Part shown: positions 3,303-64,000 of the stretch, piece after piece
Layout: every line of letters starts with the position of its first letter
Position numbering within the stretch: position 1 is the first letter of the stretch
Sequence record: MN508624.2
DNA from: Enterobacter phage EC-F2
DNA length: 64,000 bases
Strand: one strand, 5' to 3'
Position numbers and translations under genes: made by a program
Notes under the pieces: generated by a model
What the model saw: only the letters and a program-made list of their open reading frames with translations
What the model was told of the DNA's origin: nothing
Database searches by the model: none

Positions 3303-3322
3303 AAAAGGGGCAAAGCCCCTTA
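3303..3322 (-). terminator. rho-independent terminator (ggggcaaagcccc)
   Basis: Hairpin plus T-run on the minus strand, immediately after the dda stop. Confidence 0.4.
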
Positions 3323-4651
3323 TACATAATCAACGGTGTAACGTGCGCGGGTTACGCCCACATAGATTAACTGCTTACACAGATCGTAATCTGCGAACGC
3401 ATACGCATCGCGCGTGTACATATACGCATGGTCATACGTGCTCCCCTGTGATTTGTGATACGTGCAAACCGGAAGAGGCTTAACATCCTGGAACTTGTTT
3501 TTAATCGCCCAGAACGAATGCCACGGGGCTTTATAGCCTGTTTGCTGCTTGATGCGCTTATAAGTGCTCGCAACGTAGGCCAGATAGTTACCCAGACGGT
3601 CTTTCATCACCGGATCAACAACAACCTGAATCTGTGCTTCGGTTTCCTCTTCGAGCGATACCGTTTTCAGAAGATAGAATTCAAGTTCGATCTTCTCGTC
3701 GCACTTCTCCGCCTTGATAACTTCCCGACGCGGGATGATTTCTAAGACTCGGATTTTTTCGTTGTTGTTATAAACAATCTCGGTGAAGATCTGCCCGTTC
3801 AACCGCATTTCCTGAACTAACGGTTCCTGCATCACGATCACTTCATCGAGAATGAAAGGTTCTGTTGTTTTGTACAGGTGTTTACGGATCGTTGCGTTCA
3901 GCTTGTCCACGTTGTCGTTAGTGTAAGCGAACATGCGGTTCTCGATCAAGTCATCCGGCGTTTTGACACGGCGGAAATACTGACGGAGGAAGTCAACAGC
4001 GTTAGCATGTTGGAACACACCCAGATCACCGACAGACATCGGTTTCAGCATCTTACCATCACGTACAGCCCGTGAAACCTGAATAATCGGGTTCCCTTCT
4101 GCCTGACGCATGATTTTATCCATACGGATAACATCAAAGATTTCTTCATCAAAGAACGGGGAGAGTTCAACACGTCCATCGGCGTTTACCGGACGGATCT
4201 GATCTTTATCACCCAGTCCCAGAATAACAGCGTTGCTTGGAATACTGCGCCGGATGATTCGGAACAGATCCATATCAACCATCGAGACTTCTTCAACAAC
4301 GAACACGCGACAGGTAGACAGATCAGGCGCTTTCTTGCCTTTCTGCTGTTCGAACACACGCAGTTCTTCGTTTGTCACAGGGCTAATCTTCAATGCAGAA
4401 TGAATCGTTGTTGCGTCCATTCCGGTAGCCGCTGCTAACACGTTTTTAGCCTGGTGTGTTGGGGCAGTTAACCAAATACCGCTAATCCCCAACCCTTTCA
4501 GAGTGTTAAAGACAAACTTAACCAGTGTTGTTTTACCAACACCAGGGCCACCCGTAATAGTTGTATGAATGGCGTTCTGGATGTTGTGGATCACGCGATC
4601 ATGCGCGGACTTCTGATCGTCACTCAGATCATCAAATGTTAACTCGCTCAT
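3320..4651 (-). CDS. dda: Dda-type SF1 DNA helicase
   Basis: Walker A GGPGVGKTT near the N-terminus; 443 aa versus T4 Dda 439 aa; synteny with dexA. Confidence 0.85.
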   Translation of the reverse strand: MSELTFDDLSDDQKSAHDRVIHNIQNAIHTTITGGPGVGKTTLVKFVFNTLKGLGISGIWLTAPTHQAKNVLAAATGMDATTIHSALKISPVTNEELRVFEQQKGKKAPDLSTCRVFVVEEVSMVDMDLFRIIRRSIPSNAVILGLGDKDQIRPVNADGRVELSPFFDEEIFDVIRMDKIMRQAEGNPIIQVSRAVRDGKMLKPMSVGDLGVFQHANAVDFLRQYFRRVKTPDDLIENRMFAYTNDNVDKLNATIRKHLYKTTEPFILDEVIVMQEPLVQEMRLNGQIFTEIVYNNNEKIRVLEIIPRREVIKAEKCDEKIELEFYLLKTVSLEEETEAQIQVVVDPVMKDRLGNYLAYVASTYKRIKQQTGYKAPWHSFWAIKNKFQDVKPLPVCTYHKSQGSTYDHAYMYTRDAYAFADYDLCKQLIYVGVTRARYTVDYV

Positions 4652-4935
4652 AATTTGAGTAATACCCCTTGAATTTTCGAATTCTCAATAAACCAACGCA
4701 TCTCTTTTTTCTGTTCTTCGGTTGCTGGTAGTTGCTCGGTTTTGCGGAAGAAACTGAAACGCGGTTCGTCCGGCGTGTAGTTCAGTTTGGTTTCGTAGCA
4801 CTTGCGGATAAAATCTAATTTATCTTTTGCAAGTTGCGGTGATGCAAACAGTTCCGGCGTTTTCCCGTTTTCAACGTGTGGAATAGTAAAGCCGTCTTTG
4901 TCTTTCGTAACAATGATATAGTATTTGTCAATCAT
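4648..4935 (-). CDS. hypothetical protein (95 aa)
   Basis: ORF with ATGA-type overlaps. Confidence 0.4.
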   Translation of the reverse strand: MIDKYYIIVTKDKDGFTIPHVENGKTPELFASPQLAKDKLDFIRKCYETKLNYTPDEPRFSFFRKTEQLPATEEQKKEMRWFIENSKIQGVLLKL

Positions 4936-5114: not shown

Positions 5115-5647
5115 TAGTAGTTGTTAGCCCAACGACGCAGGTTTTCCGCCTGTTTCAGAGCATACAGCTTGTAGATGGTTTCCGCATCCAGTCCCAGCGC
5201 GAGGAACTTACACATGAAGAAGTGCCACTGGTCAATCAGTTCAAACAGGATTTCCAGTTTGTCTTCTTCTTTCATTTCTGCGAATACCTGATTACGCAGT
5301 TCCTGGTGATTTGCTTTCCACGGTTTCCATACACCGGAAGCCGCTTTTGCACCGCGAGACATACCACCCAGAGCGGTGTAAAGTTCGCGGGTTTCGTCTG
5401 CGATCGCATCATCTTGCAGTTTCAGCCAGTCCAGAATATCACCGCACGTTTTCAGGTTATCAGGGCGCGGAACCCATGAAAGGGTATCGGACAGGCTTTG
5501 CTGTGCGTGGTTTTGCAGATCCAGCATTGATTGCAGCGGGTCGCCGTTACGTGCCAGAATCTTTTGATATTCATTATCTACGAATTCCAGATCGGCAGGG
5601 TTAACCAGGTGCGCACAGCTATTAAACACAGGAGTTTTATCAGTCAT
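5114..5647 (-). CDS. 56: MazG-like dNTP pyrophosphatase, gp56 (dCTPase/dUTPase)-like
   Basis: N-terminus ...FNSCAHLVNP resembles T4 gp56 MAHFNECAHLIEG (from memory); all-alpha composition with an E..TRE motif; 177 aa versus T4 171 aa. Confidence 0.5.
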   Translation of the reverse strand: MTDKTPVFNSCAHLVNPADLEFVDNEYQKILARNGDPLQSMLDLQNHAQQSLSDTLSWVPRPDNLKTCGDILDWLKLQDDAIADETRELYTALGGMSRGAKAASGVWKPWKANHQELRNQVFAEMKEEDKLEILFELIDQWHFFMCKFLALGLDAETIYKLYALKQAENLRRWANNY

Positions 5648-5654
5648 ATCAATC

Positions 5655-6680
5655 TCATTTTTTCGGTGATTTGTTCCACGACTTAAACCGAAGTTTTGCC
5701 GTGAGTCCAGAAACAGTATTATCTTTCAAATACTGCATGATTTCAAGTTTAGTTGCGCCGTCAGTTTTTATCATTTCGTTGATATCTTTTGACGGCCACG
5801 GGCATTTGTCCCACAACACAACCTTTTCGCCAGCCTCAATCAATTTTAAAAGGCGGTGAGTAGTATCAGGGTGTCTCGCTTCATTGTCAAGAACCCAGAC
5901 ACGCATATTTTTATACGGAACATCGGACAGCGCCATTTGTCCGCCCGTAATCGCACCAGCATTATCTACAAACAGGCTATCCAGCGGCCCTTCAAGCAGG
6001 TAGACAGGTTTCAACGGATCGATGGTATCTTGACCATACACTTTCGTTGAGTGTTCACATGCTTTGATTGTCATGTATTTTGCGTTGGCATTGTCACGTA
6101 AGGCACGTCCCTGGAATGACTCGATTTTACCCTTTTCATCAAAGATAGGGATCACCAAACGTGGTTCATCCTTCGGTAAAGGGTATGCGTCCGCATTCAC
6201 AGAATTAACCAGGTGTTGCCATTGACGCGTAAACCAGAGGCGATCATATTTGTCTTTAGGTATGTGACGACCTGCAACATACTTAACGATAGGGTGATTT
6301 TCTGGCAACGTGTCCAGACGTTCGCAGAACTGCAATTCAGGAATATATTTCTTTTCTTCCTTCGGCGGTTCTTCGTGCGTCTGTTTTAAATCTTTACGAT
6401 CCTTGAAAGATTCCATCAAATACGCCGTGTAATCATCCGGGTAATAATCTTTCAGAAACACAGAAAACGGCTTGCTGTAGTTGCAGTTAAAACAACCACA
6501 CATCATGTGTGTGCCTCGTTTTGATGGAAAGATCCAAAAACGTTTTTTGTGCTTATCCTTCATGGAGTCGCCACAAATCGGACAACGGGAATGGATACTG
6601 AATTCCCCACCCCGTCGAACGATTTCGCTTTGTGGTAATGATCCCATGATACGAGTTGCGAACTCTATATCAAGATACAT
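5655..6680 (-). CDS. 61: DNA primase gp61
   Basis: N-terminal zinc-binding motif CPICGDS...CGCFNCNY and central TOPRIM-like region; 341 aa versus T4 342 aa; downstream of gp41 as in T4. Confidence 0.85.
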   Translation of the reverse strand: MYLDIEFATRIMGSLPQSEIVRRGGEFSIHSRCPICGDSMKDKHKKRFWIFPSKRGTHMMCGCFNCNYSKPFSVFLKDYYPDDYTAYLMESFKDRKDLKQTHEEPPKEEKKYIPELQFCERLDTLPENHPIVKYVAGRHIPKDKYDRLWFTRQWQHLVNSVNADAYPLPKDEPRLVIPIFDEKGKIESFQGRALRDNANAKYMTIKACEHSTKVYGQDTIDPLKPVYLLEGPLDSLFVDNAGAITGGQMALSDVPYKNMRVWVLDNEARHPDTTHRLLKLIEAGEKVVLWDKCPWPSKDINEMIKTDGATKLEIMQYLKDNTVSGLTAKLRFKSWNKSPKK

Positions 6681-7403: not shown

Positions 7404-8189
7404 TTACTCTATTGTGAAAGTGAAAAGGTTTTGCGCGGGTTCTGGCTCCGGTTCGGGGAATTCCATACAGACAACTTCACACATCGGTTTCACGCCTTTC
7501 CATTCTTCCAGATAATATCCGGTATCAATGCCGCAACCTGGTTGCATTTCAAGGCCAGTTTCATCAAGAAACTTTTTGCATTTCGATGTTGTCGTTGATT
7601 CGTCCTGTTGGAAATAACGCCGTCCAGAGTAACGGAAATTCGCGGACATCTGCGGGAGAATGAACGTACCCGCACGGGCAATCTGTGAAGCACGTTCAAT
7701 CACTTTATATTCAAATTCCGCGCCCGTATACTTACCCTTAAAATCGGATGTCTTTATCTTGCCGAAAGGCGGATTGCTGATCGCCATATCAAACATAGTA
7801 TCAAACTCCGTCGTTAACGCGTCTGCGTTAATCCAGGTCGCTTCCGGTACGATACGCTTACCCAACTTATAGTATGTATGGTTTAACTCCACACAGACGA
7901 TTTCACGCGGTTTGGCGTACATCATCATATGAAGCATCGCGAAGGATAGCCCACCGATACCCGCGCACAGGTCAACAACGCTTCCACTGGTACAAGCATC
8001 AATGGTGAAATCGCGAGCAAGTCCGATCGGGGTAAAGAATGCACCCAGTTCAGAGTTATTCGTAAATGCACCTTCATGGAAGTTTTCGATAATGAATAAT
8101 TTTTCGTCGTAGGTTAGCGCCTTGTCAGACTCCACCAGATCCATTATCTTGTTGTGTTGTTTGGTTTCCGCTTTCGTTAACTTCGCCAT
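7404..8189 (-). CDS. N6-adenine DNA methyltransferase (motif I before motif IV, gamma-like order)
   Basis: Motif I VVDLCAGIGGLSF (FxGxG) followed about 65 aa later by motif IV NPPFGK; 261 aa. Confidence 0.75.
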   Translation of the reverse strand: MAKLTKAETKQHNKIMDLVESDKALTYDEKLFIIENFHEGAFTNNSELGAFFTPIGLARDFTIDACTSGSVVDLCAGIGGLSFAMLHMMMYAKPREIVCVELNHTYYKLGKRIVPEATWINADALTTEFDTMFDMAISNPPFGKIKTSDFKGKYTGAEFEYKVIERASQIARAGTFILPQMSANFRYSGRRYFQQDESTTTSKCKKFLDETGLEMQPGCGIDTGYYLEEWKGVKPMCEVVCMEFPEPEPEPAQNLFTFTIE

Positions 8190-8511
8190 TGACCTTTTCC
8201 GGTAATAAGAACAGAGGGGTAGATTCTACCACATCAAAGCCCCAGTCATCAACAATATTGCTTTCCCAGTCGCGGGTTTCCCACGGGCTGCAAATCCACT
8301 TATACACCCCAGCAGGATCTTCAACCTGTTCAGGCATACCCAGCATTTCCGCATTGATACCTTCGTCCAGATAGCCAGGATGAATATTAGGCCAGCGCAT
8401 GATATCAACGTAGCCTTTATCATCAACTGATACGATCCATTCGGAACGATACGGACTATCGAACTTCGGTTCTTCTTCGTCTGGAAGTATCATATCTAAT
8501 AAATCACTCAT
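8125..8511 (-). CDS. hypothetical acidic protein (128 aa)
   Basis: ORF whose 3' end overlaps the MTase start by about 60 nt in another frame. Confidence 0.35.
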   Translation of the reverse strand: MSDLLDMILPDEEEPKFDSPYRSEWIVSVDDKGYVDIMRWPNIHPGYLDEGINAEMLGMPEQVEDPAGVYKWICSPWETRDWESNIVDDWGFDVVESTPLFLLPEKVNGEVNESGNQTTQQDNGSGGV

Positions 8512-12434: not shown

Positions 12435-15140
12435 TTACCAGTCATCACCGAACAGAGTGTTCAGGGATGCGCGTTTTTCGTAATCAATTTTACATGCTTC
12501 CGTGATGTTTTGCAACGGGCTAACCACATGTTTTTCAAATAATCCGCCATAGTCTACCCACTTCAAAATATCTTCTTCGATCTCAGTTGGTAAACGCGTA
12601 CCGGATTGCCATGCGATGCAATCAGCTTGCCACGGGTTTTTATCTCGCAACGGCAGAACCATCACCTTTTCACCTTCCATGATCGGGGTGATTCCTTGAA
12701 TACCCTTCGTATGGCGGTTAAAGAACAGAACGCCTTTGATGTGGTTTGGTGTCCCTTTGATTGGGAAGCCAGCACCATCATTATATTTTGAGATATTGTT
12801 AGCAGATGATACACCAGCTATTTCTCGGTAGTCAAGCGCCTTATACTCTTCTTCAAATACTTTGAAGTGTTCGTGTAAGGATTCTTCACCTTCTTGCAGG
12901 ATGCGACGGATCGCTTCTTTCAAGAACTTTTTAACCGCTGTCGGTGTACTGCTTCGCTGGGTTTCCATTCCCATGATCTTTAATTTAGGCTTCTCGTAGC
13001 GGGTTCCTTCGGAGTCCCATACGTTAGCCGCATATCGTTTCTTAGCCGTCCAGAAACTACCCAGACCTTTCGATCCTAGAGGTGGTCCAGAAATGATTTC
13101 GCGATCCATAAACATCAGATGTTCGACGTTGTTCATGTACTCACACAGTTCGCGGTAGCCCTTATCAATGATAGGTTCCATGCGTTCTTTACTGAACTTA
13201 TCCAGGAAGTCAACCCAATGGTTGTTATCCCTGAACTTACTTTCACCGCCGACTTTCGCGATCACGTTATCCATACAAACATAAATGGAGTCGGTGTCAC
13301 AGTAGCGCACGTATGCGTAATCCGTGGTGTTGCACAGTTCGTTAAGGTATTCGTTAACCTTACGTTCAATCCACTGAATAGCCAACTGACCGAACATGGT
13401 GATCGCGCTTGCGTTTCGAATATCGAAGTACCGGAAGTGTTCATTACCCAACGCACCATAAAGGGAGTTGATTGAAATCTTACGGTTAAGCTGTGCGGTG
13501 TTTGCTTGTGCGATCTTCTTCTCACAAACTTTCTTCACGGCTTTAAGCATTTGCTTAGACAGCGTTTTCAGTACAGCTTTTGATTCATCACTGAAATCTT
13601 CGTAGAACTCGAAATCAGGGTTGATCATTTGATTGTGCGCGTCCGTCAGGTGTTCAAGTTCGTGCTTAATCAGTTCGAGATTTCGCTCACCCGCCATCAT
13701 TCGTTTTTTCCACGTCTTACGCTGATCAAATACTTTCTTGATCTCGACCGGAATCACGCCTTTAACATCGCGTCGGAACATCCACCCGTTAGGAGAGCAG
13801 CTAAATTCATCGCTAGGGCGCGGCGCAGTCTTATTGATGTATTCGTGCATCGGACGCACTGCAAAGCTGTTAGCGATTGTCTCAGGGCTTATATTCACCT
13901 GTCGGATGATAGATGGATACAGACTGGTTAAGTCGAACGATACAATGTATTTGTACGGAGCGACAACCGGATCTTTAACGTATGCACCATCATACTGCGT
14001 TTTCGTGTGGCGTTTATTTTCTGGGATTACTTTCTTCTCTTCACGCAGAGAGTTGTAAATGATCGCGTCCCACGTTTTAAGCGGAGACATAACCCCAGGG
14101 AAGTTTATTTTCGCATAGTACGCTACAGACAGAACCAGTTCGATAAAGTTGCGTTTCCCGTCGATATCCAACACGCGGATAACGTCAACGATGTTATACG
14201 TGATGTATTTCTGGTGATCCGCTTGACGCAGTTCAGACAGTGAACCTTCGTAATCAACTTTGTTTTTGCCTGTTTCGAACTCAGCGATTGCGCCCAGAGC
14301 GTAAGACGGTTGCGGGGTGAAACTGAATTTCTTATAGAGATCCATTCCATCCATTTGAGAAACGCCGTAAATCTCGTATCCCAGTTGTTCATTCCCATAA
14401 TGGTCGGTTGTTGTCTTCGCAGTCACTTTCCCGAACGGGCTGAAATGACGAACAACGTTTTGCCCGAAGATGTTCAGGTAACGGGTGATGATATACGCGA
14501 TATCGAATTTGTTCGAGTTCCAGCCCGTAACAATAACAGGTGTCCGCTCTTTCCAGTCTTTGATATAAGCAGACATCAGCGACTTTTCGGTCTGGAATGA
14601 ACGGTAAACAATTTTCTTCAAATCTTCTTCGCTGATCTCTTTTTCGGTATCAACTTTCGACGCTACCCACTCGTCTAACCCGCCCTCGACCAGATCATAC
14701 ACAAAGAATTTATCTTCAACGCTGTCATAGTGGGTGATTGCGTCGATAGCGTATTTTGCTTCGCGTGGATCAGGGAATTCAGGCGCGGTAACTTCGATAT
14801 CAAGTGAAGCAATACGGATCTTGTCGCGATCGTAGTTGATTTCCTTTCTGTAAGAATCGGAGATATACGCCAGCCTGAAATCATCCATGCCTAGCGCTTC
14901 CATACCTACATCTTTCATTCGCTGCATCCAGTTTTTCGCTTCCTTGATGCTGTCGAAGTTCTTTTTGATGCAGGTCTTGCCGTAAATGTCGCGATACGGC
15001 GAGTCTACACCCGCCATAGCGTGTTGAAACATTGTAGGCGCATATTTTGTTTTGCGAACCTGTTCGCGTCCCTCAGAGTCAATGAAGCGCTCGTAGATGT
15101 GATCGCCCATTTGCTCAACGGATAGATAAAATTCATTCAT
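12435..15140 (-). CDS. 43: DNA polymerase gp43 (family B, with 3'-5' exonuclease domain)
   Basis: Collinear with T4 gp43 over its whole length (e.g. YGDTDS motif at ...YCDTDSIYVC, KKRYA); 901 aa versus T4 898 aa. Confidence 0.95.
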   Translation of the reverse strand: MNEFYLSVEQMGDHIYERFIDSEGREQVRKTKYAPTMFQHAMAGVDSPYRDIYGKTCIKKNFDSIKEAKNWMQRMKDVGMEALGMDDFRLAYISDSYRKEINYDRDKIRIASLDIEVTAPEFPDPREAKYAIDAITHYDSVEDKFFVYDLVEGGLDEWVASKVDTEKEISEEDLKKIVYRSFQTEKSLMSAYIKDWKERTPVIVTGWNSNKFDIAYIITRYLNIFGQNVVRHFSPFGKVTAKTTTDHYGNEQLGYEIYGVSQMDGMDLYKKFSFTPQPSYALGAIAEFETGKNKVDYEGSLSELRQADHQKYITYNIVDVIRVLDIDGKRNFIELVLSVAYYAKINFPGVMSPLKTWDAIIYNSLREEKKVIPENKRHTKTQYDGAYVKDPVVAPYKYIVSFDLTSLYPSIIRQVNISPETIANSFAVRPMHEYINKTAPRPSDEFSCSPNGWMFRRDVKGVIPVEIKKVFDQRKTWKKRMMAGERNLELIKHELEHLTDAHNQMINPDFEFYEDFSDESKAVLKTLSKQMLKAVKKVCEKKIAQANTAQLNRKISINSLYGALGNEHFRYFDIRNASAITMFGQLAIQWIERKVNEYLNELCNTTDYAYVRYCDTDSIYVCMDNVIAKVGGESKFRDNNHWVDFLDKFSKERMEPIIDKGYRELCEYMNNVEHLMFMDREIISGPPLGSKGLGSFWTAKKRYAANVWDSEGTRYEKPKLKIMGMETQRSSTPTAVKKFLKEAIRRILQEGEESLHEHFKVFEEEYKALDYREIAGVSSANNISKYNDGAGFPIKGTPNHIKGVLFFNRHTKGIQGITPIMEGEKVMVLPLRDKNPWQADCIAWQSGTRLPTEIEEDILKWVDYGGLFEKHVVSPLQNITEACKIDYEKRASLNTLFGDDW

Positions 15141-15450
15141 TACGGTTTTCTTTCTCCGTGTTTAATCGTGACAGGAATGATACCCCAGCCAGCTTGATCA
15201 GATCAAGTGAACGTTGCGCTAATTTGTGATAGCGTTGGGTGTCTGGTCGATTTAGGTTTTCAACCAGTGCGGTATATTCTTCCATGATACGGGTATAGAA
15301 TTTAGGGAAATGATCCCGCGCATATGCGTAGGTGCGCAGGTCAGAGAGATTGCAAGTAAGAGACAGTTTGATGTCTTCGCTATGCAGACGGTTGATCAGA
15401 TGATCGCCTGATTCGATAGCTTTGATGATTTCTTCAATACGAATTTTCAT
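15133..15450 (-). CDS. hypothetical protein (105 aa)
   Basis: ORF between regA and 43. Confidence 0.4.
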   Translation of the reverse strand: MKIRIEEIIKAIESGDHLINRLHSEDIKLSLTCNLSDLRTYAYARDHFPKFYTRIMEEYTALVENLNRPDTQRYHKLAQRSLDLIKLAGVSFLSRLNTEKENRNE

Positions 15451-56661: not shown

Positions 56662-58908
56662 TTAGATTTTGACTTCTTTTTCTTCCAGGACGATTTCACA
56701 TTCGAATGATGTGGTTTCCCAGACTTTCCAGAAATCGGATGGAATATTATCTTCTTTCGGAAGAATATCTTTTGCAGCGATAGAAACTTTGGTTTCTTCG
56801 AAGTCCAGATCCGCGAACCATGCATGGGCTACTACAACACCGTACATTACGCGACTTAAACGGGCATTCAGTTTACGGACTTCCTGAATCGTTGCCTTTG
56901 TCTGCTTATCAAGATACTCGACTACCTGATCTTTGTCAAGCGCATCCAGTTCAGATTTCACCTGATCATAAGCCCACAGGATAATCAGGTCGCCGTTGTT
57001 CAGTTTCTTCTTACCTTCTTCACGCTTCGCGACGGTAGCCGCTACAGCAGGAAGGGAGGAAACACCCTTGATTTTCACGTTCAGTTCTTTCGACATGTAA
57101 ACATCAGTCGATTCTGTGCGCTCAACCTTCGGAGAGAACCCGTAATCACGAATACCCTGTTCAGACAGCCATTCACCCGCAGCCTCACCAAAGCGCTGTT
57201 TCAGCCCTTCTGCGTTGCGCAGTCCGATCGCGTTGTCACGGAAGAACTTCATAACCTTCTGACGGCCTTTCAGGATTTCCAGACGCACGTTATCAGTCAC
57301 GAACTCTTTACCGCTTAACCCGCGAGTCATGCCACGGTTAACCAGAGGCAGAGAGGTAAAGTCTACCAGAACAGACATACGATCATCACCGATTTTTTCG
57401 AGCGGCTTGATAGTCAGGCCAGAAGCACGAAGGTTTTTCAGTGTCGGAATATCGGTTTCCAGCGGCAGAACTTTAACGTTCACGATACCATCTTTAACGA
57501 TGGTGAAGTTACGCACCTGCTTAGTTTCGACTTTTTCCGGCAGACCGAATTCTTTCTGTTTGCTTTCTGGGATAGTCACATACCCTTCCAGATCCGTGTT
57601 GATGGAAATGTTCGGACGGGAACTGTTACCCACCAGATGTTTAACCGATACTTTGGTTGTGGTTTGGGTAAATTTCGGTGTCCAGACTTCATGCGCTACC
57701 ATTTGCGCCGCCAGTGCTTTACGTTCTTCTGGGGTTGCAGCGTTTGCGATCTGTTCGGTCAGTTGATCCAGTGTATCATCTTCTTTCTGTACCGTCTGAC
57801 GGCCTGTGCGGTTGTACGCCCAGTGCTCAGAAGACAGGTCGATCACTGTGTCAGTTTGTGCCAGCAGTTCGAGCGCATCAACCAGAGTGAACGCGTTTTC
57901 GTCTGGAACCATGTTGTAATCAATACCATCAACGAAACGCTGTGATGGATCTACAACAGCCTGTGCAATCAGGTCTTTCGCGTTGGAGTAGTCCTGTTTG
58001 GTAAAGCAGTTGTCATACGCCTTGATCAGACGGACATCACCCAGCTTTTGAAGCACTTTCCATGCCAGATCAGGGTTCATTGTGTGCAGTGCATGATAAA
58101 GCACGACATACAGAACTTGCTGTTCGCTGGCGATGTTCGGATCGAAACCGTCAACATCGTTGATCGCGTTTTCACCCAGCGCCCAGATGTTTTTGATGTG
58201 TTCTGGAACCAGCACAACACCGTTTGCAGCGTTCAGGACATACACGCGCCCTTCGTCCAGGTAGATCGCGTGGGTAGCATCAGCAACTTTGACTTCGATA
58301 CGTGCGGAAGTCTGCGCGGTGATGATTTCGTTAAATGCTGGTTCGTATGCGTCGAAACCTTCAACGAATTTGTGCAATGCGTTGGTTGCTTCTGCCATTT
58401 TTTCCAGCAGAGGACGGTTTACATAATAACCGTATTCCAGGAACGCGATACTGTTGAAAGTCAGTGGCAGAACCGCACACGCTTTCAGAATATCATCGGT
58501 ACGCCAGCAGTTATCATAACCATCGGTCAGGAAGATCAGGCTGTTCAGGTTGCCGTTTTCGGATTGCAGATCGGTAGCGATTTCCGCAGCCAGATTCAAC
58601 GGCTCAACAAAGCCAGTACAACCCGTAGGTTTCAGGTAACGGTCGATAGCCGCGCAGATGTTAGACAGGTCAGAGACATTGCTAACCTTCTCACCACGGA
58701 ACACCGTGCCGTAATCGCCTTTGCTGGAGAAGTACAGGATCGAAACGGTGTCATCCTGTTTAACCAGACTCGCCAGGTTTGCTTTCAGGTGTTTACGGAT
58801 CTTAGGCAGTTCGTTGTACATTGAACCGGATACGTCACACACGAAAACGTGGTTTGTCGGGGTTGGCTTCGATACAGCGTTTTTGAATTCGATATTTGTG
58901 ATTGACAT
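56662..58908 (-). CDS. large vWA (von Willebrand factor A) domain protein (748 aa)
   Basis: N-terminal MIDAS motif HVFVCDVSGSM (DxSxS) with a following vWA-like alpha/beta region; the remaining roughly 550 aa have no recognisable motif. Confidence 0.65.
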   Translation of the reverse strand: MSITNIEFKNAVSKPTPTNHVFVCDVSGSMYNELPKIRKHLKANLASLVKQDDTVSILYFSSKGDYGTVFRGEKVSNVSDLSNICAAIDRYLKPTGCTGFVEPLNLAAEIATDLQSENGNLNSLIFLTDGYDNCWRTDDILKACAVLPLTFNSIAFLEYGYYVNRPLLEKMAEATNALHKFVEGFDAYEPAFNEIITAQTSARIEVKVADATHAIYLDEGRVYVLNAANGVVLVPEHIKNIWALGENAINDVDGFDPNIASEQQVLYVVLYHALHTMNPDLAWKVLQKLGDVRLIKAYDNCFTKQDYSNAKDLIAQAVVDPSQRFVDGIDYNMVPDENAFTLVDALELLAQTDTVIDLSSEHWAYNRTGRQTVQKEDDTLDQLTEQIANAATPEERKALAAQMVAHEVWTPKFTQTTTKVSVKHLVGNSSRPNISINTDLEGYVTIPESKQKEFGLPEKVETKQVRNFTIVKDGIVNVKVLPLETDIPTLKNLRASGLTIKPLEKIGDDRMSVLVDFTSLPLVNRGMTRGLSGKEFVTDNVRLEILKGRQKVMKFFRDNAIGLRNAEGLKQRFGEAAGEWLSEQGIRDYGFSPKVERTESTDVYMSKELNVKIKGVSSLPAVAATVAKREEGKKKLNNGDLIILWAYDQVKSELDALDKDQVVEYLDKQTKATIQEVRKLNARLSRVMYGVVVAHAWFADLDFEETKVSIAAKDILPKEDNIPSDFWKVWETTSFECEIVLEEKEVKI

Positions 58909-59247: not shown

Positions 59248-59759
59248 CAGTGATGACTCTTTGATGTGTGTTCAAGGTTGCGGAAGATGTTTCCATGTTC
59301 CAGTTGAGTTCCGATCGGGCCGCATTCATCGGAGTACGTGAATTCATAGATAAACACGCCGTCCTGATTGCCGAACTTCGTGTTGTACTCTTCGTACAAC
59401 CACATTTTGATCAGAGCGTCTTTCTCTTCTGTTTCCAGATCGTACCAGTCTCGCCCGTCATACGCAAGCGCGATTTGAGGGTTTGAACGGTAGCGGGTTT
59501 CCGCGTTTTCTTCGGTTTCCCAGTCATAGCGCTTATCGTCGTAGAACGATTCAAAGCTATTACCCAGATGACCGCCTAAGTCACGATGAACGTGACTGAC
59601 CACTTCTTCCGCTGTCAACGGCGGATCGTAGTAACCACAATCAGGGACGCAATCGCCCATCATTTCGCGCAGGTTGTCGATATTAGTCGGATCTTTCGGG
59701 AACCGGACGATGAAACTACTTGATGAACTGTTGCTCACAAAACCAGAACGGATTTTCAT
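59247..59759 (-). CDS. hypothetical protein, paralog A of the MKIRSGFVSNSSSSSF family (170 aa)
   Basis: N-terminus identical to the ORF at 55342-55809; DNA about 70 percent identical over the first roughly 50 nt. Confidence 0.5.
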   Translation of the reverse strand: MKIRSGFVSNSSSSSFIVRFPKDPTNIDNLREMMGDCVPDCGYYDPPLTAEEVVSHVHRDLGGHLGNSFESFYDDKRYDWETEENAETRYRSNPQIALAYDGRDWYDLETEEKDALIKMWLYEEYNTKFGNQDGVFIYEFTYSDECGPIGTQLEHGNIFRNLEHTSKSHH

Positions 59760-59989
59760 TTTACATCCTCAAATTGTAAGTTTTCTTTGGTTGCGTTCGC
59801 AATGGCTTTTTCGTTGTTCAGTGTTACTATGCGCAGACGTTCGCCAGTAAAGCCGTCGCATTCAGTGATACTCACCCAGTCAAAAGGTTTAGCCATTTCA
59901 ATCGCACGTTCCAGCGATACGGTAGAACCGACTAAATCACTAAATGTATAGTAATCTTCGCTTAAACTTTCAACAGTATAAATTTTCAT
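59756..59989 (-). CDS. hypothetical protein (77 aa)
   Basis: Operon ORF. Confidence 0.35.
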   Translation of the reverse strand: MKIYTVESLSEDYYTFSDLVGSTVSLERAIEMAKPFDWVSITECDGFTGERLRIVTLNNEKAIANATKENLQFEDVK

Positions 59990-60228
59990 GATACTTTACC
60001 CTTTGTTTCGGATTTCAGGACGATGTTACTGTAAGGATCTTTTGCTACCAGTTCCCACAGGTCGCCAGGATGTTCCCCGCTACGGTAGACGGATGAACGG
60101 ATGATTTCGTTAAACTTGCTCAGGGCTTCGTCGATGTCGTCATACCCGCGTTTGAGGGGCTTACGATTGCAACGAATGAAGAACATTTCGTTGGTATTCT
60201 CCCCGCGTTCGGCGTTTTTATTTTTCAT
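59986..60228 (-). CDS. hypothetical protein (80 aa)
   Basis: Operon ORF. Confidence 0.35.
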   Translation of the reverse strand: MKNKNAERGENTNEMFFIRCNRKPLKRGYDDIDEALSKFNEIIRSSVYRSGEHPGDLWELVAKDPYSNIVLKSETKGKVS

Positions 60229-60497
60229 TCGAGCACCATTTTACCAATAACTTCTTCATAGGTCACAGGGTTCGGTTCATAACCGTTAGCGCCTATTGTA
60301 TCGCCTACTCTGTTCCCCACCAATACAGCAACCGCAACTTTCTTACCGTCTTTCCATGCGATGAATTCGAGATCATCGGCAACATACGGGAAGGTTTCGT
60401 GATTGTTCACTGCGTCGATACAGTCCAGAATGGTATCGGATGCGCAGATCAGATTACCAGGCTCACAATCAACAAGACATTCAACAGTATAGATCAT
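60225..60497 (-). CDS. hypothetical protein (90 aa)
   Basis: Operon ORF. Confidence 0.35.
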   Translation of the reverse strand: MIYTVECLVDCEPGNLICASDTILDCIDAVNNHETFPYVADDLEFIAWKDGKKVAVAVLVGNRVGDTIGANGYEPNPVTYEEVIGKMVLE

Positions 60498-60511
60498 AAT
60501 AACTTCCTCAC

Positions 60512-60536
60512 GAAAAAAGCCCCTTTCGGGGCTTGA
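60512..60536 (-). terminator. rho-independent terminator (aagcccctttcggggctt)
   Basis: Perfect hairpin plus TTTTTT on the minus strand. Confidence 0.5.
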
Positions 60537-60540
60537 TTAA

Positions 60541-60819
60541 TCAGTGTCCGAACACACCACGGATAGACTCTGCGAAAGCGTACAGTTCAGGGTTTTTCGC
60601 TTTCACTGTTTCGATTTGTTCCAGGATGTAATCTGGTTTGTATTTCGCACCGAACCAGCAGTAAGAGAAAGAACGATCCCACATGAACACGTTGTAGTAT
60701 TCACCGTTACGCACTTCAACCATCACGTAACCTGGATTAGAACCCAGCGGGTAATCTTTCAGGAGATTGAATTTCGCACCAGCGCCAGTACATCCGTTAA
60801 ACAGGTCATTAAAAGTCAT
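60541..60819 (-). CDS. hypothetical protein (92 aa)
   Basis: ATG preceded by a variant of the conserved leader (GAAACGAAACTGAAAAGGAAC). Confidence 0.45.
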   Translation of the reverse strand: MTFNDLFNGCTGAGAKFNLLKDYPLGSNPGYVMVEVRNGEYYNVFMWDRSFSYCWFGAKYKPDYILEQIETVKAKNPELYAFAESIRGVFGH

Positions 60820-60860
60820 GGTATGTTCCTTTTCAGTTTCGTTTCAACAAGGCCAATATA

Positions 60861-61076
60861 TTACACTTCGTTAAACCATGCAAGATATTTCTTCTCTTGT
60901 CTGTTCAAAACGTCATAACAAGAGGCGACACAAACGGTTTCCCACACAACTTCATCGTAAGCATTCACGAAGCGAATGATCAGAGTTTTGCCATTAGTCA
61001 TCAAAGCCGGAGTGAACCCAAGTTCTTTAACCGCTTTTACTTTCTTCTGGAATAACGCTTTAGTCATGTTAGCCAT
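60861..61076 (-). CDS. hypothetical protein (about 71 aa, MANMTKALFQKK...)
   Basis: ATG with an AAGGAGG RBS (ccgaaacaaaggaggcacaaaATG). Confidence 0.4.
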   Translation of the reverse strand: MANMTKALFQKKVKAVKELGFTPALMTNGKTLIIRFVNAYDEVVWETVCVASCYDVLNRQEKKYLAWFNEV

Positions 61077-61116
61077 TTTGTGCCTCCTTTGTTTCGGTAA
61101 AGCTAAGGTATCACTA

Positions 61117-62037
61117 TCAATCAGACAGTGCAAGCACTTTTTTAATTTGTTTTGCAATTGCTTCGATCACCGGAACCGAAACAGAGTTCCCTGCCTGTTT
61201 ATATGCTTGCTTCTTGCTTGTCGGGATCTGGAATGAATCTGGGAAGCCCTGCAAGCGGAAACATTCACGCGGGGTTAATCGTCGTGGGTTCTTCCCGTCC
61301 TGTAACACCAGACATTGAACACCGTCCTTGAAGTATTGGGCTGTTATCGTCCCAGTACACACAGAATCGCTTGTGACGGCCTGATAACCGAAACCCTTAC
61401 CGTTTGCCTTATTTCGTTCCTTACGCTCTCTAAAGCCTTTCCATGCGTTATCTGAGAGGGTGAATGAATCATCAGCATCTTCGAGGATGTCGCCTACGCG
61501 TGTAGGTGTACGCGGGGGAACAGGAAATGAAAAGAATACATCATCCAGGAAGCAGACAATAAACACGCGTTCCCGTCTTTGGGGTAGTCCGAAATCCTTT
61601 GTGTTCAGGCGTTGATAGAATACGTTATATCCTTCGGCCTCCAGAAGCCCGTAAATCGTTTTAAACGTCTTCCCCTTGTCATGGGTTAGCAGTTCAGGCA
61701 CGTTCTCAAAGAACAACACACGGGGCTTTTTAGCGCGTATAATGCGGAGGATTTCGAAGAACACCGTACCGCGTACATCATCAAAGCCCAGTTTCAATCC
61801 GGCTTTACTGAACGCCTGACACGGGAACCCCGCGAGCAGGATATCATGATCAGGTACTTTGTTTTCATCAATGGCGAATAGATCACCCTGTAGGTTATCA
61901 TCGCCCCAGTTTTCGATATATGTTTGCTGTGCGAACTTGTCGATTTCAGACGTTAAAAGGCATTCGACACCGCCGAACGCCTTATCAAATCCTAATCGAA
62001 CCCCGCCCACACCAGCGCAGAGGTCAATTATTTTCAT
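61117..62037 (-). CDS. C5-cytosine DNA methyltransferase (Dcm-class, short, 306 aa)
   Basis: Motif I IDLCAGVGG, motif IV GFPCQAFS, motif VI ENV, motif X-like QAGNSVSVPV. Confidence 0.8.
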   Translation of the reverse strand: MKIIDLCAGVGGVRLGFDKAFGGVECLLTSEIDKFAQQTYIENWGDDNLQGDLFAIDENKVPDHDILLAGFPCQAFSKAGLKLGFDDVRGTVFFEILRIIRAKKPRVLFFENVPELLTHDKGKTFKTIYGLLEAEGYNVFYQRLNTKDFGLPQRRERVFIVCFLDDVFFSFPVPPRTPTRVGDILEDADDSFTLSDNAWKGFRERKERNKANGKGFGYQAVTSDSVCTGTITAQYFKDGVQCLVLQDGKNPRRLTPRECFRLQGFPDSFQIPTSKKQAYKQAGNSVSVPVIEAIAKQIKKVLALSD

Positions 62038-62303
62038 ACGTCAAAATCAATCTCGTCGATTTTGTATGAGTTTTCGTCAATGTCCGCCCATAGGGTTACA
62101 TTAACGTGTTTGCTATCTTCGTACAACTGGCGACCATCAATCCCGCCCGTGTAATTACTTTCGGTACGTTCAGTAACTTCCAGTCGGAGGCTATCGCGCA
62201 TGATCTGAACAACAGCCTGTTCCAGTGTAACTGCGTCTGGGTTTTTGGTATCGCCCAGTACAACATCTTTAACGTTCAAAATAATATCAGTCATTAGTGC
62301 CAC
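62034..62303 (-). CDS. hypothetical protein (89 aa)
   Basis: Operon ORF; stop overlaps the MTase start. Confidence 0.35.
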   Translation of the reverse strand: MALMTDIILNVKDVVLGDTKNPDAVTLEQAVVQIMRDSLRLEVTERTESNYTGGIDGRQLYEDSKHVNVTLWADIDENSYKIDEIDFDV

Positions 62304-62536
62304 TCCGTTTTAATACCATGTCGGTATGCGTCAATCCCCAGCGGGGTAATCAGCAACCATGCTTTCGAATTATCGTGATAGCCCGTTACCCTTCGAGCGT
62401 AACCTTTTTGAATCAGGGCATCACGCCCTGATTTGCTGGGTACGTCATCGAAATCTAAGTCTAGCACCTTAGTTGCATATCCGTAAAGTTTATACAGAAC
62501 ATCAATTTCAGCGCCGGACAATTTAGGATACATCAT
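62294..62536 (-). CDS. hypothetical protein (80 aa), possibly wHTH-like
   Basis: Operon ORF; helix-rich basic segment ALIQKGYARRV. Confidence 0.3.
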   Translation of the reverse strand: MMYPKLSGAEIDVLYKLYGYATKVLDLDFDDVPSKSGRDALIQKGYARRVTGYHDNSKAWLLITPLGIDAYRHGIKTEWH

Positions 62537-63534
62537 TTGTAATACCCCACAACATGATCGCGGTATACGCGTTCGATGAAATCGTTCCAGAATTCGCGGT
62601 CAACTTCTTTCGGATATGTTGAAATCGCTGCAAGCCGTTCGACTTCGCCCATGACTTCTTCCAGCTTTTCCTGTACGGTTGCGAACGGTACACCGCCAGC
62701 TTTAACCAGTTTCAGGAATGCGCTATCAGGCAGAGGATAAACGATATCACCATCTTTGTAAATCTGGATCAACTGCATACCACCGCGTAAAGCGTGACTT
62801 AAAGCCTTCCAGTCGATGCCGTTGTTGGCTTCTGCTTGTCGTGCGCGTTCTCCGTATTCATCCCAGAGTTTATACACAGACTTACGCATTTCATCGGCTT
62901 TGATCGTGAACTGGAATTTACGCCCCAGCACTTCATAGAAGTCCTGACAACCAGATTTCATTGTCGTGTCGGTAACGAATCGACAGAACTCGTTTGTAGG
63001 GAAACGATCCTTGATGTCAGACACTTTCACTTCACGCGTATAGCGTTTCATATCTGGTGTGAATTCCTGAATACCACCGATCGTTTCGGTTTCTTTCAGT
63101 ACATCGACAACTTCGCGCAGTGCAGCCAGTCGGGAACCCTTCACGCCATATTTCGCGGCTTGCTTACGAACATAACCGAACAAGCCAGTTAGTTCAGTGG
63201 TGTAAAAACGCCAGCGGTTAGCGCGGATATACTGCCAGATTTCAGAGTTAGCGATCAGCTTGTCATCCGAAGCGTGAAGCATATCGAGCGCTACGGTATC
63301 ACCATCACACGCAAGACTAATGAACTTAGTCAGACTATACAACTGACGGTCAACGTCGTCTACGGTGTTTTTAGAGCTTTTATCGCCTGTGCTGGTGTCA
63401 ATAGTCTTCGGGGCTTTCCCCAGGAGAATATCGCGCGGGTGCGGGAGAAAGATCCCTTTATAGTCTTTGTCGCTTGTCGGTGTGTTCAGTCCGTACAGGT
63501 GAGAACCGAACACGGTTTCCATTACAGTTTTCAA
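62533..63534 (-). CDS. Pol-beta-superfamily nucleotidyltransferase-fold protein (333 aa)
   Basis: N-terminal hG[GS]x9-13Dx[DE] pattern FGSHLYGLNTPTSDKDYKG with a later acidic strand VALDML; the remainder is helical. Confidence 0.55.
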   Translation of the reverse strand: MKTVMETVFGSHLYGLNTPTSDKDYKGIFLPHPRDILLGKAPKTIDTSTGDKSSKNTVDDVDRQLYSLTKFISLACDGDTVALDMLHASDDKLIANSEIWQYIRANRWRFYTTELTGLFGYVRKQAAKYGVKGSRLAALREVVDVLKETETIGGIQEFTPDMKRYTREVKVSDIKDRFPTNEFCRFVTDTTMKSGCQDFYEVLGRKFQFTIKADEMRKSVYKLWDEYGERARQAEANNGIDWKALSHALRGGMQLIQIYKDGDIVYPLPDSAFLKLVKAGGVPFATVQEKLEEVMGEVERLAAISTYPKEVDREFWNDFIERVYRDHVVGYYK

Positions 63535-63929
63535 AATTCAACCCCCAGGGTTTTTGCGATACCGCGCAGTTCAGCGGTAGTGATATTTGGTACACGCGTT
63601 ACATGTCCACGACCGAACGCGTCTTTGATTTTATCAGTAAGTTCGACACGGTACAAATGTTCTTTGTATTCGTCTTCGCTGTGATAACCCTGTGTATGGT
63701 TATTCCAGTCATTAGCGCTACCAGTTTTTCGATCAAGTCGCTCAACACGGAAATCTTTAATATCGGTGATATTTGGATCTTCCGACGCATACAGGTATTG
63801 ACGGGCAACCTTGATCACATACAGGGTGCGCGGTCGTGGGGTATTGTGATGACTGTATCGACGAATACCAGGATCAAACAGGGTATCACCCACTTTCACA
63901 TCAGTTAAATCTATCATTTCATTTTCCAA
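63531..63929 (-). CDS. hypothetical protein (132 aa)
   Basis: Operon ORF upstream of the NTase gene. Confidence 0.4.
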   Translation of the reverse strand: MENEMIDLTDVKVGDTLFDPGIRRYSHHNTPRPRTLYVIKVARQYLYASEDPNITDIKDFRVERLDRKTGSANDWNNHTQGYHSEDEYKEHLYRVELTDKIKDAFGRGHVTRVPNITTAELRGIAKTLGVEF

Positions 63930-64000
63930 CGTTTTGACTTTTCACAGTAGAACACCGGAAGACGTGCCAGAACTGGCTTCACTACGTCTTCCCCTGTGTT

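Follow-up and report, generated by a model that had tools for sequence, protein, structure and literature searches.

A stand-alone C5-cytosine methyltransferase of SsoII/NlaX ancestry in Enterobacter phage EC-F2 and its predicted target

Of a DNA methyltransferase gene in a phage it can be asked which sequence is methylated and what the phage gains from it. Here the question is raised for a gene at positions 61117 to 62037 of a 64,000-nucleotide stretch of Enterobacter phage EC-F2 (sequence record MN508624.2), referred to below as the window. The window belongs to a Pseudotevenvirus, that is, to the RB16/RB43 group of T4-related phages. Family profiles, comparison of the recognition domain with characterized enzymes, and counts of sites in phage genomes suggest that its product is an active, stand-alone methyltransferase from the SsoII/Ecl18kI/NlaX lineage. 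This enzyme probably modifies the phage's own DNA at CCNGG-type sites as a protection against host restriction. It most likely protects at least CCWGG.

The enzyme and its recognition domain

The gene is an open reading frame (ORF) on the minus strand with an ATG start and 306 codons for amino acids, found at exactly these coordinates in the ORF list of the window. The Pfam profile PF00145 was matched from 1 to 324 of its 324 positions by residues 1-300 (E 1.7e-92, 310.7 bits against a cut-off of 22 bits), and TIGR00675 gave 321.1 bits, above its cut-off of 100.65. A preliminary description, made from the sequence alone, had read this ORF as a 306-residue C5-cytosine methyltransferase and had proposed a family profile match as a check; the Pfam result confirms it. 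The top relative in the PDB is M.HhaI (E 4e-63, residues 2-299 aligned to 13-319). The conserved motifs occur in canonical order, with PCQ at residues 72-74, ENV at 111-113, QRRER at 153-157, and GN at 283-284, and catalytic Cys, Glu, and Arg are all preserved. All four motifs named earlier (DLCAGVGG, GFPCQAFS, ENV, and GN) are there; the first is not the canonical FxGxG, as its Phe is replaced by Cys. Judged from these features, a full-length, intact C5-cytosine DNA methyltransferase is encoded at 61117..62037. Its parts are as follows.

61117..62037, minus strand: coding sequence of the predicted C5-cytosine DNA methyltransferase, 306 amino acids, ortholog of RB43ORF127c/RB16p119/KP15_105 (ORF, PF00145, TIGR00675)
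62002..62025, minus strand: motif I (binding of S-adenosylmethionine, AdoMet), DLCAGVGG, residues 5-12, with Cys in place of the usual Phe
61807..61830, minus strand: motif IV, GFPCQAFS, residues 70-77, aligned with the PCQ of M.HhaI; Cys73 is the predicted catalytic nucleophile
61699..61707, minus strand: motif VI, ENV, residues 111-113; Glu111 is predicted to protonate N3 of cytosine
61555..61581, minus strand: motif VIII, QRRERVFIV, residues 153-161
61285..61548, minus strand: target-recognition domain (TRD), residues 164-251, 88 amino acids, of SsoII/Ecl18kI/NlaX type, with the elements GKGFGYQ (residues 213-219) and TGTITAQYFKDGVQCLV (residues 228-244)
61168..61284, minus strand: motif IX (RRLTPRECFRLQGFP, residues 252-266) and motif X (AGNSVSVPV, residues 282-290; motif X itself 61168-61194)

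The gene is an ordinary one, already known and annotated, an orphan, probably anti-restriction methyltransferase of SsoII/NlaX ancestry. The protein is 100% identical to the deposited 'DNA-cytosine methyltransferase [Enterobacter phage EC-F2]'. As early as 2006, RB43ORF127c appeared in a list as a C-5 cytosine methylase (PMC1524935). RB16p119 and KP15_105 carry the annotation of DNA methyltransferase, and in the GenBank notes both KP15_105 and RB43ORF127c are described as 'similar to cytosine methylase NlaX; methylase ScrFIA'. In the papers on KP15 and KP27 the gene is named 'Dcm' (PMC3620542, PMC5219037). A protein at least 80% identical is found in 172 phage records and the surrounding 4-kb neighborhood in 176, which makes the gene all but universal in Pseudotevenvirus and Slopekvirus. 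Orthologs in these two genera are 85-100% identical; they are 302-308 residues long, and the C-terminal tail of the present protein (306 residues) is a few residues longer.

In tblastn searches the best plasmid matches were the methyltransferases of pECL18 (Enterobacter cloacae), pKPN2 (Klebsiella pneumoniae), and 4.2-kb plasmids of Shigella sonnei and E. coli, all of them 54% identical to the phage enzyme over residues 2-302. The gene adjoining the pECL18 methyltransferase is R.Ecl18kI (PDB 2FQZ, E 2.6e-203). Plasmids with SsoII-type restriction-modification systems are found in Shigella, E. coli, Klebsiella, Salmonella, and Enterobacter. In CCNGG it is the second C that M.SsoII modifies, and M.Ecl18kI is the same protein but for one residue (PMC3978073). 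M.NlaX corresponds to a natural delta(1-71) version of M.SsoII, with 67% identity to it and the same specificity; each of the two is 41% identical to M.HhaI (PMC3978073). Among bacterial or archaeal loci with homologs of 45-56% identity, 32 of 80 have an adjacent nuclease of Ecl18kI/EcoRII-C type.

The same relationship is found in the TRD, which was bounded in every protein as the segment from the end of motif VIII to the start of motif IX. The phage TRD is identical to that of M.Ecl18kI at 45 of 88 positions (51%); the two are colinear, with the same core indel pattern and with gaps only at the edge proximal to motif VIII. The GKGFGY and T-x-T-I-x-A-x-Y-x-KDG elements are shared with the TRDs of M.SsoII and M.Ecl18kI. 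Identity falls to 28% with E. coli Dcm (33 gap columns) and to 23% with M.HhaI (19 of 84 positions, 20 gap columns). The predicted target, at the level of the family, would be the inner C of CCNGG. The earlier opinion that the specificity cannot be read from the sequence was therefore too pessimistic, since this recognition domain belongs to the SsoII/Ecl18kI/NlaX (CCNGG) type, as the RB43 and KP15 GenBank notes state.

The M.HhaI match raises the possibility that the TRD has diverged and that another sequence altogether is methylated, for example GCGC. Besides the M.HhaI hit being the best in the PDB, this idea is favored by the fact that neither GCGC nor CGCG is depleted in the window and that 7 of 17 core TRD residues depart from the SsoII-family consensus. 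M.HhaI (327 residues) shares the one-polypeptide, two-lobe architecture and the catalytic residues, and the similarity lies in the catalytic domain; with a TRD only 23% identical, against 51% to M.Ecl18kI, the M.HhaI specificity is not to be transferred. Moreover, RB49 and T4 show no depletion of GCGC either, which makes its abundance in the window uninformative. Methylation of a different sequence is thus quite improbable, and GCGC specificity drawn from the top PDB match was ruled out by the per-domain comparison.

The term 'Dcm-class', used in the preliminary description, holds at the superfamily level but not below it. The Dcm subfamily model NF007772 gives 198.9 bits against a cut-off of 710, and the insertions and the 90-residue N-terminus of Dcm are absent from the phage enzyme. 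Orthology to E. coli Dcm was ruled out by this score, by the TRD identity, and by the lengths. Dcm and M.EcoRII methylate the inner C of CCWGG; an enzyme that methylates CCNGG covers this target as well, and the site statistics of the phage genome, given below, would fit an effective specificity like that of Dcm.

The description of the enzyme as compact, with a target-recognition region that must be very short at 306 residues, was not upheld. The TRD measures 88 amino acids, compared with 90 in the nearest bacterial homologs, 94 in M.Ecl18kI, 100 in M.HhaI, and 115 in E. coli Dcm, and 49 of 98 bacterial homologs are no longer than 310 amino acids; on these comparisons of TRD and protein length, an unusually compact enzyme was dismissed. 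The protein is short overall because it has no N-terminal extension: motif I starts at residue 5, compared with residue 76 in M.Ecl18kI and 91 in Dcm. Likewise, the best PADLOC model, a type II methyltransferase profile, was matched at positions 75-391 of 407, with only the N-terminal extension absent. M.SsoII, M.Ecl18kI, and M.Kpn2kI (379 amino acids; inner C of CCNGG; plasmids of Shigella, Enterobacter, and Klebsiella) have a 71-residue helix-turn-helix (HTH) regulatory N-terminus, which the phage enzyme lacks. In this it resembles M.NlaX from Neisseria lactamica (313 amino acids, CCNGG), likewise a single-domain enzyme of SsoII type and similar length without the N-terminal regulatory region, a likeness taken from the published description and the RB43/KP15 record notes. 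With about 54-61% identity to SsoII-type enzymes, and with TRD substitutions specific to its clade, the phage enzyme stands further from them than M.NlaX does from M.SsoII.

M.Ecl18kI has its nuclease R.Ecl18kI beside it; the phage enzyme has none. No nuclease match was found with Pfam or PADLOC in the flanking ORFs (71-92 amino acids, phage-only families, also searched against PHROGs), and tblastn with R.Ecl18kI found nothing in the window (best E 0.7). The orphan status proposed earlier was thereby borne out, and a hidden restriction partner was ruled out by the same searches. The neighboring ORFs also gave no Pfam match suggesting vsr, although no search of the window aimed at Vsr was made. 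With neither an N-terminal HTH regulator nor a cognate nuclease, the gene looks like a captured methyltransferase module.

Two bacterial or metagenomic relatives show other arrangements. The closest bacterial homolog (61%) lies in a P2-like prophage of Morganella morganii (GCA_003996855.1), with a GPA replication protein, portal, terminase, and Dam-type methyltransferase nearby. It directly follows a 156-residue ORF whose alignment to R.Ecl18kI is confined to residues 110-251 of that nuclease (locus positions 3523-4927). The pair looks like a decayed restriction-modification system, or like a methyltransferase orphaned on a temperate phage. A 59% homolog on metagenome scaffold ERZ28634975 (locus 3312-4933) is immediately preceded by a 224-residue protein with a GmrSD_N domain (type IV restriction family), and a UvrD-like helicase is encoded upstream of the homolog; it is unusual for a methyltransferase to be paired with the domain of a modification-dependent nuclease.

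Probable protection and the usage of CCNGG sites

The RB43/RB16/KP15 group has neither gene 42 nor glucosyltransferases (PMC2993671, PMC12115623, PMC3620542), and its DNA therefore contains ordinary cytosine. The substrate of the enzyme would be this DNA as it replicates. By the chemistry of the family, the target cytosine would be flipped out, Cys73 of PCQ would attack C6, Glu111 of ENV would protonate N3, and C5 would receive the methyl group from AdoMet, for which motifs I-III and X form the binding site. From the TRD homology, the methylated base would be the inner cytosine of CCNGG-type sites. The phage DNA should then resist EcoRII-type (CCWGG) and SsoII/Ecl18kI/Kpn2kI-type (CCNGG) enzymes; SsoII-type systems are borne on small mobilizable plasmids in the host genera of the phage group. 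McrBC needs R-m5C (m5C, 5-methylcytosine), and since C-m5C is not such a site, the methylation should be invisible to it. Because the enzyme is phage-borne, the protection would hold with or without host Dcm, which E. coli B strains lack. RB43 and RB16 were both isolated on E. coli B (PMC2993671).

Support for activity is indirect and comes from purifying selection and from the DNA of relatives. Among seven phage orthologs from Pseudotevenvirus and Slopekvirus, dN/dS was 0.05-0.12 for the whole gene and 0.03-0.17 in the TRD, with dS up to 1.5; a pseudogene or decaying gene was ruled out by these values. The phage clade (78-100% identity) is set apart by a gap from all bacterial homologs (at most 61%), and by its substitution pattern it is a functional but long-diverged lineage under strong purifying selection. 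In addition, DNA of KP15 and KP27 is uncut by EcoRII despite 279 and 276 CCWGG sites, respectively (PMC3620542). KP27 DNA was also reported to resist EcoRI, NsiI, SnaBI, and DpnI despite many sites, and the near-identical KP15 is sensitive (PMC3620542, PMC5219037). As the KP15 and KP27 methyltransferases are 99% similar, the enzyme does not explain this 'unknown modification' of KP27.

Further analysis examined how often possible target sites occur. Thirty-two interrupted 5-bp palindromes were scored against expectations from a Markov model and from composition, with T4 and RB49 as the comparators (50 kb each; T4 positions 1-50 kb). A search for more distant T4-like loci by way of the nrdC.11 neighbor returned almost only close relatives. 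In the window, CCWGG was observed 107 times (160 expected by the Markov model, 89 by composition) and CCSGG only 7 times (52.3 and 71.9 expected), an approximately 8-fold depletion of CCSGG by the Markov model; CCWGG thus makes up 107 of the 114 CCNGG sites (94%). Two of the 32 palindromes are extreme outliers, namely CCSGG and GGWCC (4 vs 33.7). The contrast between CCSGG and CCWGG is repeated in the 20-kb loci of RB43, RB16, Lw1, and KP15, where 0-5 CCSGG sites were found against 8-13 expected. RB49, which has cytosine DNA and no PF00145 gene in a published Pfam table (PMC1524935), is depleted in both classes, with 19 CCWGG against 49-52 expected and 7 CCSGG against 26. In T4, whose DNA is protected by glucosylated hydroxymethylcytosine, neither CCWGG nor CCSGG nor GGWCC is depleted. 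Read most simply, the counts mean that coliphages with cytosine DNA do face restriction pressure on CCNGG, that the methyltransferase relieves it at CCWGG in the RB43/KP15 clade, and that CCSGG is still under selection.

Other short sites are avoided as well: CTAG (11 vs 55.7), GGCC (45 vs 94.5), and AGCT (103 vs 191) are scarce in the window, and GATC, GCGC, CGCG, and TCGA occur at expectation. T4 is depleted in GATC (59 vs 170) and RB49 in GGSCC (0 vs 6.6).

Several observations weigh against an active enzyme that protects all CCNGG sites. CCWGG itself is mildly depleted by the Markov model (observed/expected 0.67), and the depletion of CCSGG is unexpected if CCSGG is usefully protected. The EcoRII resistance of KP15 and KP27 is confounded, since KP36, which has no cytosine methyltransferase, is also resistant through host Dcm (PMC3620542). 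No direct methylation data, specificity, or methylome for the enzyme or its orthologs was found in the searchable literature. Sigma-70-like promoter sites are no more common than in shuffled sequence, and no promoter could be assigned. The remaining points concern substitutions of the phage clade. In the core of the TRD, at positions that do not vary among the bacterial SsoII-type homologs, bacterial TNTISARYYKDGSEILI corresponds to TGTITA[QN]Y[YFW]KDGVQCLV in the phages. The strict SsoII-subfamily core T-N-T-I-S-A-R-Y-Y-K-D-G-S-E-I-L-I is not matched, with 7 of its 17 positions changed and fixed in the phage clade, so that the enzyme is SsoII-derived rather than a strict member of the subfamily. 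Elsewhere in the TRD, GKGFGY[G/S] has become GKGFGYQ. Outside it, QNRER has become QRRER, and the same weight attaches to ENVK becoming ENVP, QFGNS becoming QAGNS, and the motif I Cys (DLCAG), present in 21 of 21 members of the phage clade where 96 of 96 bacterial homologs have Phe. With changes in both the TRD and the catalytic motifs, specificity or kinetics may have shifted. The replacements in the catalytic lobe (62002-62025, 61699-61710, and 61168-61194), together with several of Ile by Val, separate 19-21 of 21 phage sequences from 88-96 of 96 bacterial ones. However, only 7 of the 18 clade-discriminating substitutions fall in the TRD, which makes up 29% of the length; they are not clearly concentrated there, and the sequence alone therefore offers no argument for a change of specificity.

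The alternative that deserves most attention keeps the anti-restriction role and narrows the specificity from CCNGG to CCWGG only, or to a strong preference for W. Unprotected CCSGG would then be purged by SsoII-type and CCSGG-specific nucleases. The extreme scarcity of CCSGG next to abundant CCWGG, its repetition in the four related loci, and the depletion of both classes in RB49, which lacks the enzyme, all speak for it. Clade-fixed substitutions also lie in parts of the protein aligned with the two loops through which M.HhaI contacts bases, and one or two TRD substitutions are enough to switch M.SinI between GGWCC and GGNCC. On the other side, the TRD carries no Dcm insertion and is poorly matched to Dcm, the characterized enzymes compared that have such a TRD architecture (M.SsoII, M.Ecl18kI, and M.NlaX) methylate CCNGG, and the discriminating substitutions are spread over the protein. 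The scarcity of CCSGG also has another possible cause. McrA targets Y-m5C-G-R, and methylated C-m5C-GGG is such a site, so an alternative that fits the counts is that all CCNGG is methylated and CCSGG is purged as the m5CpG there attracts type IV nucleases such as McrA. Narrowing is accordingly given a little less than an even chance. A CCWGG-only enzyme would be a sub-variant of the protective explanation, tentatively rated at that same level, and we grade no higher the form of the idea in which clade-fixed substitutions shifted an SsoII-lineage TRD toward CCWGG, or toward a strong preference for W, and the genome co-evolved by purging CCSGG.

Two further explanations depart from protection against host enzymes. 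In one, methylation mainly serves the biology of the phage, either as a self mark against phage-encoded nucleases that act on cytosine DNA (a DenA/endonuclease II homolog) or epigenetically, as a signal in transcription, replication, or packaging. The clade retains homologs of denA and gene 56 despite its cytosine DNA, and a review speculates that the methylase counteracts them (PMC8056088). The window likewise encodes a dCTP pyrophosphatase homolog, and the near-universal presence of the gene in the clade points the same way. A 5-bp sequence with about one site per 560 bp would, however, be a poor general self mark, and EndoII-type nucleases are not known to recognize CCWGG. The nearest relatives of the enzyme are restriction-modification methyltransferases of the phage's host genera, and the contrast with RB49 in CCWGG abundance fits restriction pressure; the two forms of this explanation are together improbable. 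In the other, the gene is an inactive remnant with a degraded catalytic pocket, for instance through loss of the motif I Phe. Here the changes in motif I, ENVK, and QFGNS count in favor, as they affect positions at least 90% conserved in bacterial homologs. Against these stand the low dN/dS of the whole gene, the fixation of the substitutions in all 21 clade members, and the intact catalytic Cys, Glu, and Arg, which together make an inactive remnant very improbable. An active methyltransferase that protects phage DNA at CCNGG-type sites remains the probable explanation.

Genomic setting and a second methyltransferase candidate

The gene is located in the hyperplastic accessory region of T4-type genomes (PMC2993671), in agreement with the T4-like accessory block of the preliminary description. 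The 4-kb neighborhood is 94-98% identical to those of Enterobacter, Cronobacter, and Klebsiella phages, for example EBPL, HK6, leN, and Dev_CS701. RB43ORF127c, RB16p119, KP15_105, and the EC-F2 gene occupy the same slot, downstream of nrdC.11 and two small ORFs and upstream of a protein with a von Willebrand A (vWA) domain. The neighbors named earlier (an 89-residue ORF, an 80-residue ORF, and a nucleotidyltransferase) are as stated, and all are on the minus strand.

63531..63929, minus strand: ProQ-C-like ORF, 132 amino acids
62533..63534, minus strand: nrdC.11-like nucleotidyltransferase, 333 amino acids (PF10127, phrog_388)
62294..62536, minus strand: upstream ORF, 80 amino acids
62034..62303, minus strand: upstream ORF, 89 amino acids (phrog_7342), whose stop overlaps the methyltransferase start (ATGA)
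60861..61076, minus strand: downstream ORF, 71 amino acids, with a strong AAGGAGG ribosome-binding site; phage-only family
60541..60819, minus strand: downstream ORF, 92 amino acids; phage-only family
60517..60534, minus strand: hairpin AAGCCCCGAAAGGGGCTT resembling an intrinsic terminator, with a T run after it

From the ProQ-C-like ORF to the methyltransferase, the genes form a leftward run in which starts and stops overlap by 4-10 nt. The methyltransferase ATG has no preceding Shine-Dalgarno sequence. Together with the ATGA overlap, this makes it likely that its translation is coupled to that of the upstream ORF. The hairpin falls exactly in a 43-nt intergenic gap, and the transcription unit probably ends there; overall, the region has no more terminator-like sites than expected by chance. 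No late promoter (TATAAATA) and no full MotA-box promoter was found within 59500-64000. Further downstream by a few genes, and still within the leftward cluster, lies a 748-residue protein with an N-terminal vWA/MIDAS domain (56662-58908, minus strand), which carries that annotation in RB16, RB43, and KP15.

Among relatives, the slot beside the methyltransferase is an insertion hotspot. Genes for HNH homing endonucleases adjoin it in KX443552/NC_048646 (leE), PV683289 (HMGUkp1), MW250785 (UPEC03), and MN508623 (EC-F1). A plus-strand ORF lies beside or overlaps the end of the methyltransferase gene in RB43 (RB43ORF128w, 5292-5993 of the RB43 locus) and KP15 (KP15_104, 3408-3740 of the KP15 locus). 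At the other side of the window, a gene 56-type dCTP pyrophosphatase at about 4200-4750 (minus strand), recognized by homology to Dev_CS701 14622-15152, is kept despite cytosine DNA and the lack of gene 42. That a gene 56 homolog is kept in such phages is a paradox remarked on before (PMC8056088, PMC2993671).

An N6-adenine methyltransferase had also been claimed for this DNA, giving the phage a dual methylation capacity. A second METHYLTRANSFERASE candidate, with NPPF, is the ORF at 7407..8225 (minus strand), which is probably the gene that was meant; it is the only ORF of at least 150 amino acids in the window with a [DNS]PP[YFW] motif. It has a maximum of 273 amino acids (246 as annotated in Dev_CS701) and matches phrog_3820, 'DNA methyltransferase' (E 7.6e-131), with a weak PADLOC match to mad2. 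The Pfam family MTS scores 25 bits, barely above its cut-off, N6_Mtase stays below its own, and no PDB relative was found for the ORF. Dual methylation is therefore plausible for the phage but is not established by the window. GATC is not depleted (440 vs 458). In KP15 and KP27 a Dam gene is found at another place, near 150 kb (PMC5219037). T4 Dam is itself an orphan methyltransferase of a T4-family phage and, like the predicted activity of the cytosine enzyme, modifies phage DNA after replication. It differs in its fold class, in its product (N6-adenine at GATC), and in its location between T4 genes 56 and 61, a slot that the 7407..8225 ORF does not occupy either.

Implications for phage protection and methyltransferase specificity

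For the phage group, a widely used one with therapeutic candidates for Klebsiella, Enterobacter, Cronobacter, and E. coli, the EcoRII-type and SsoII/Ecl18kI-type barriers can probably be ignored. GGWCC, CCSGG, GGCC, and AGCT apparently cannot be, and are avoided by loss of sites instead. The loose label 'Dcm' given to the KP15 and KP27 gene is corrected here; the EcoRII resistance of these phages had been credited to the phage enzyme without host Dcm being excluded. The practical value of this is small, and a decision between CCNGG and CCWGG would add modestly to what is understood of the evolution of specificity in C5-methyltransferases. If true, either reading, a specificity narrowed to CCWGG or methylation of all CCNGG with purging of CCSGG, would provide a natural case, readable across a genome, in which the specificity of a methyltransferase and the avoidance of sites are jointly adjusted to type II and type IV restriction.

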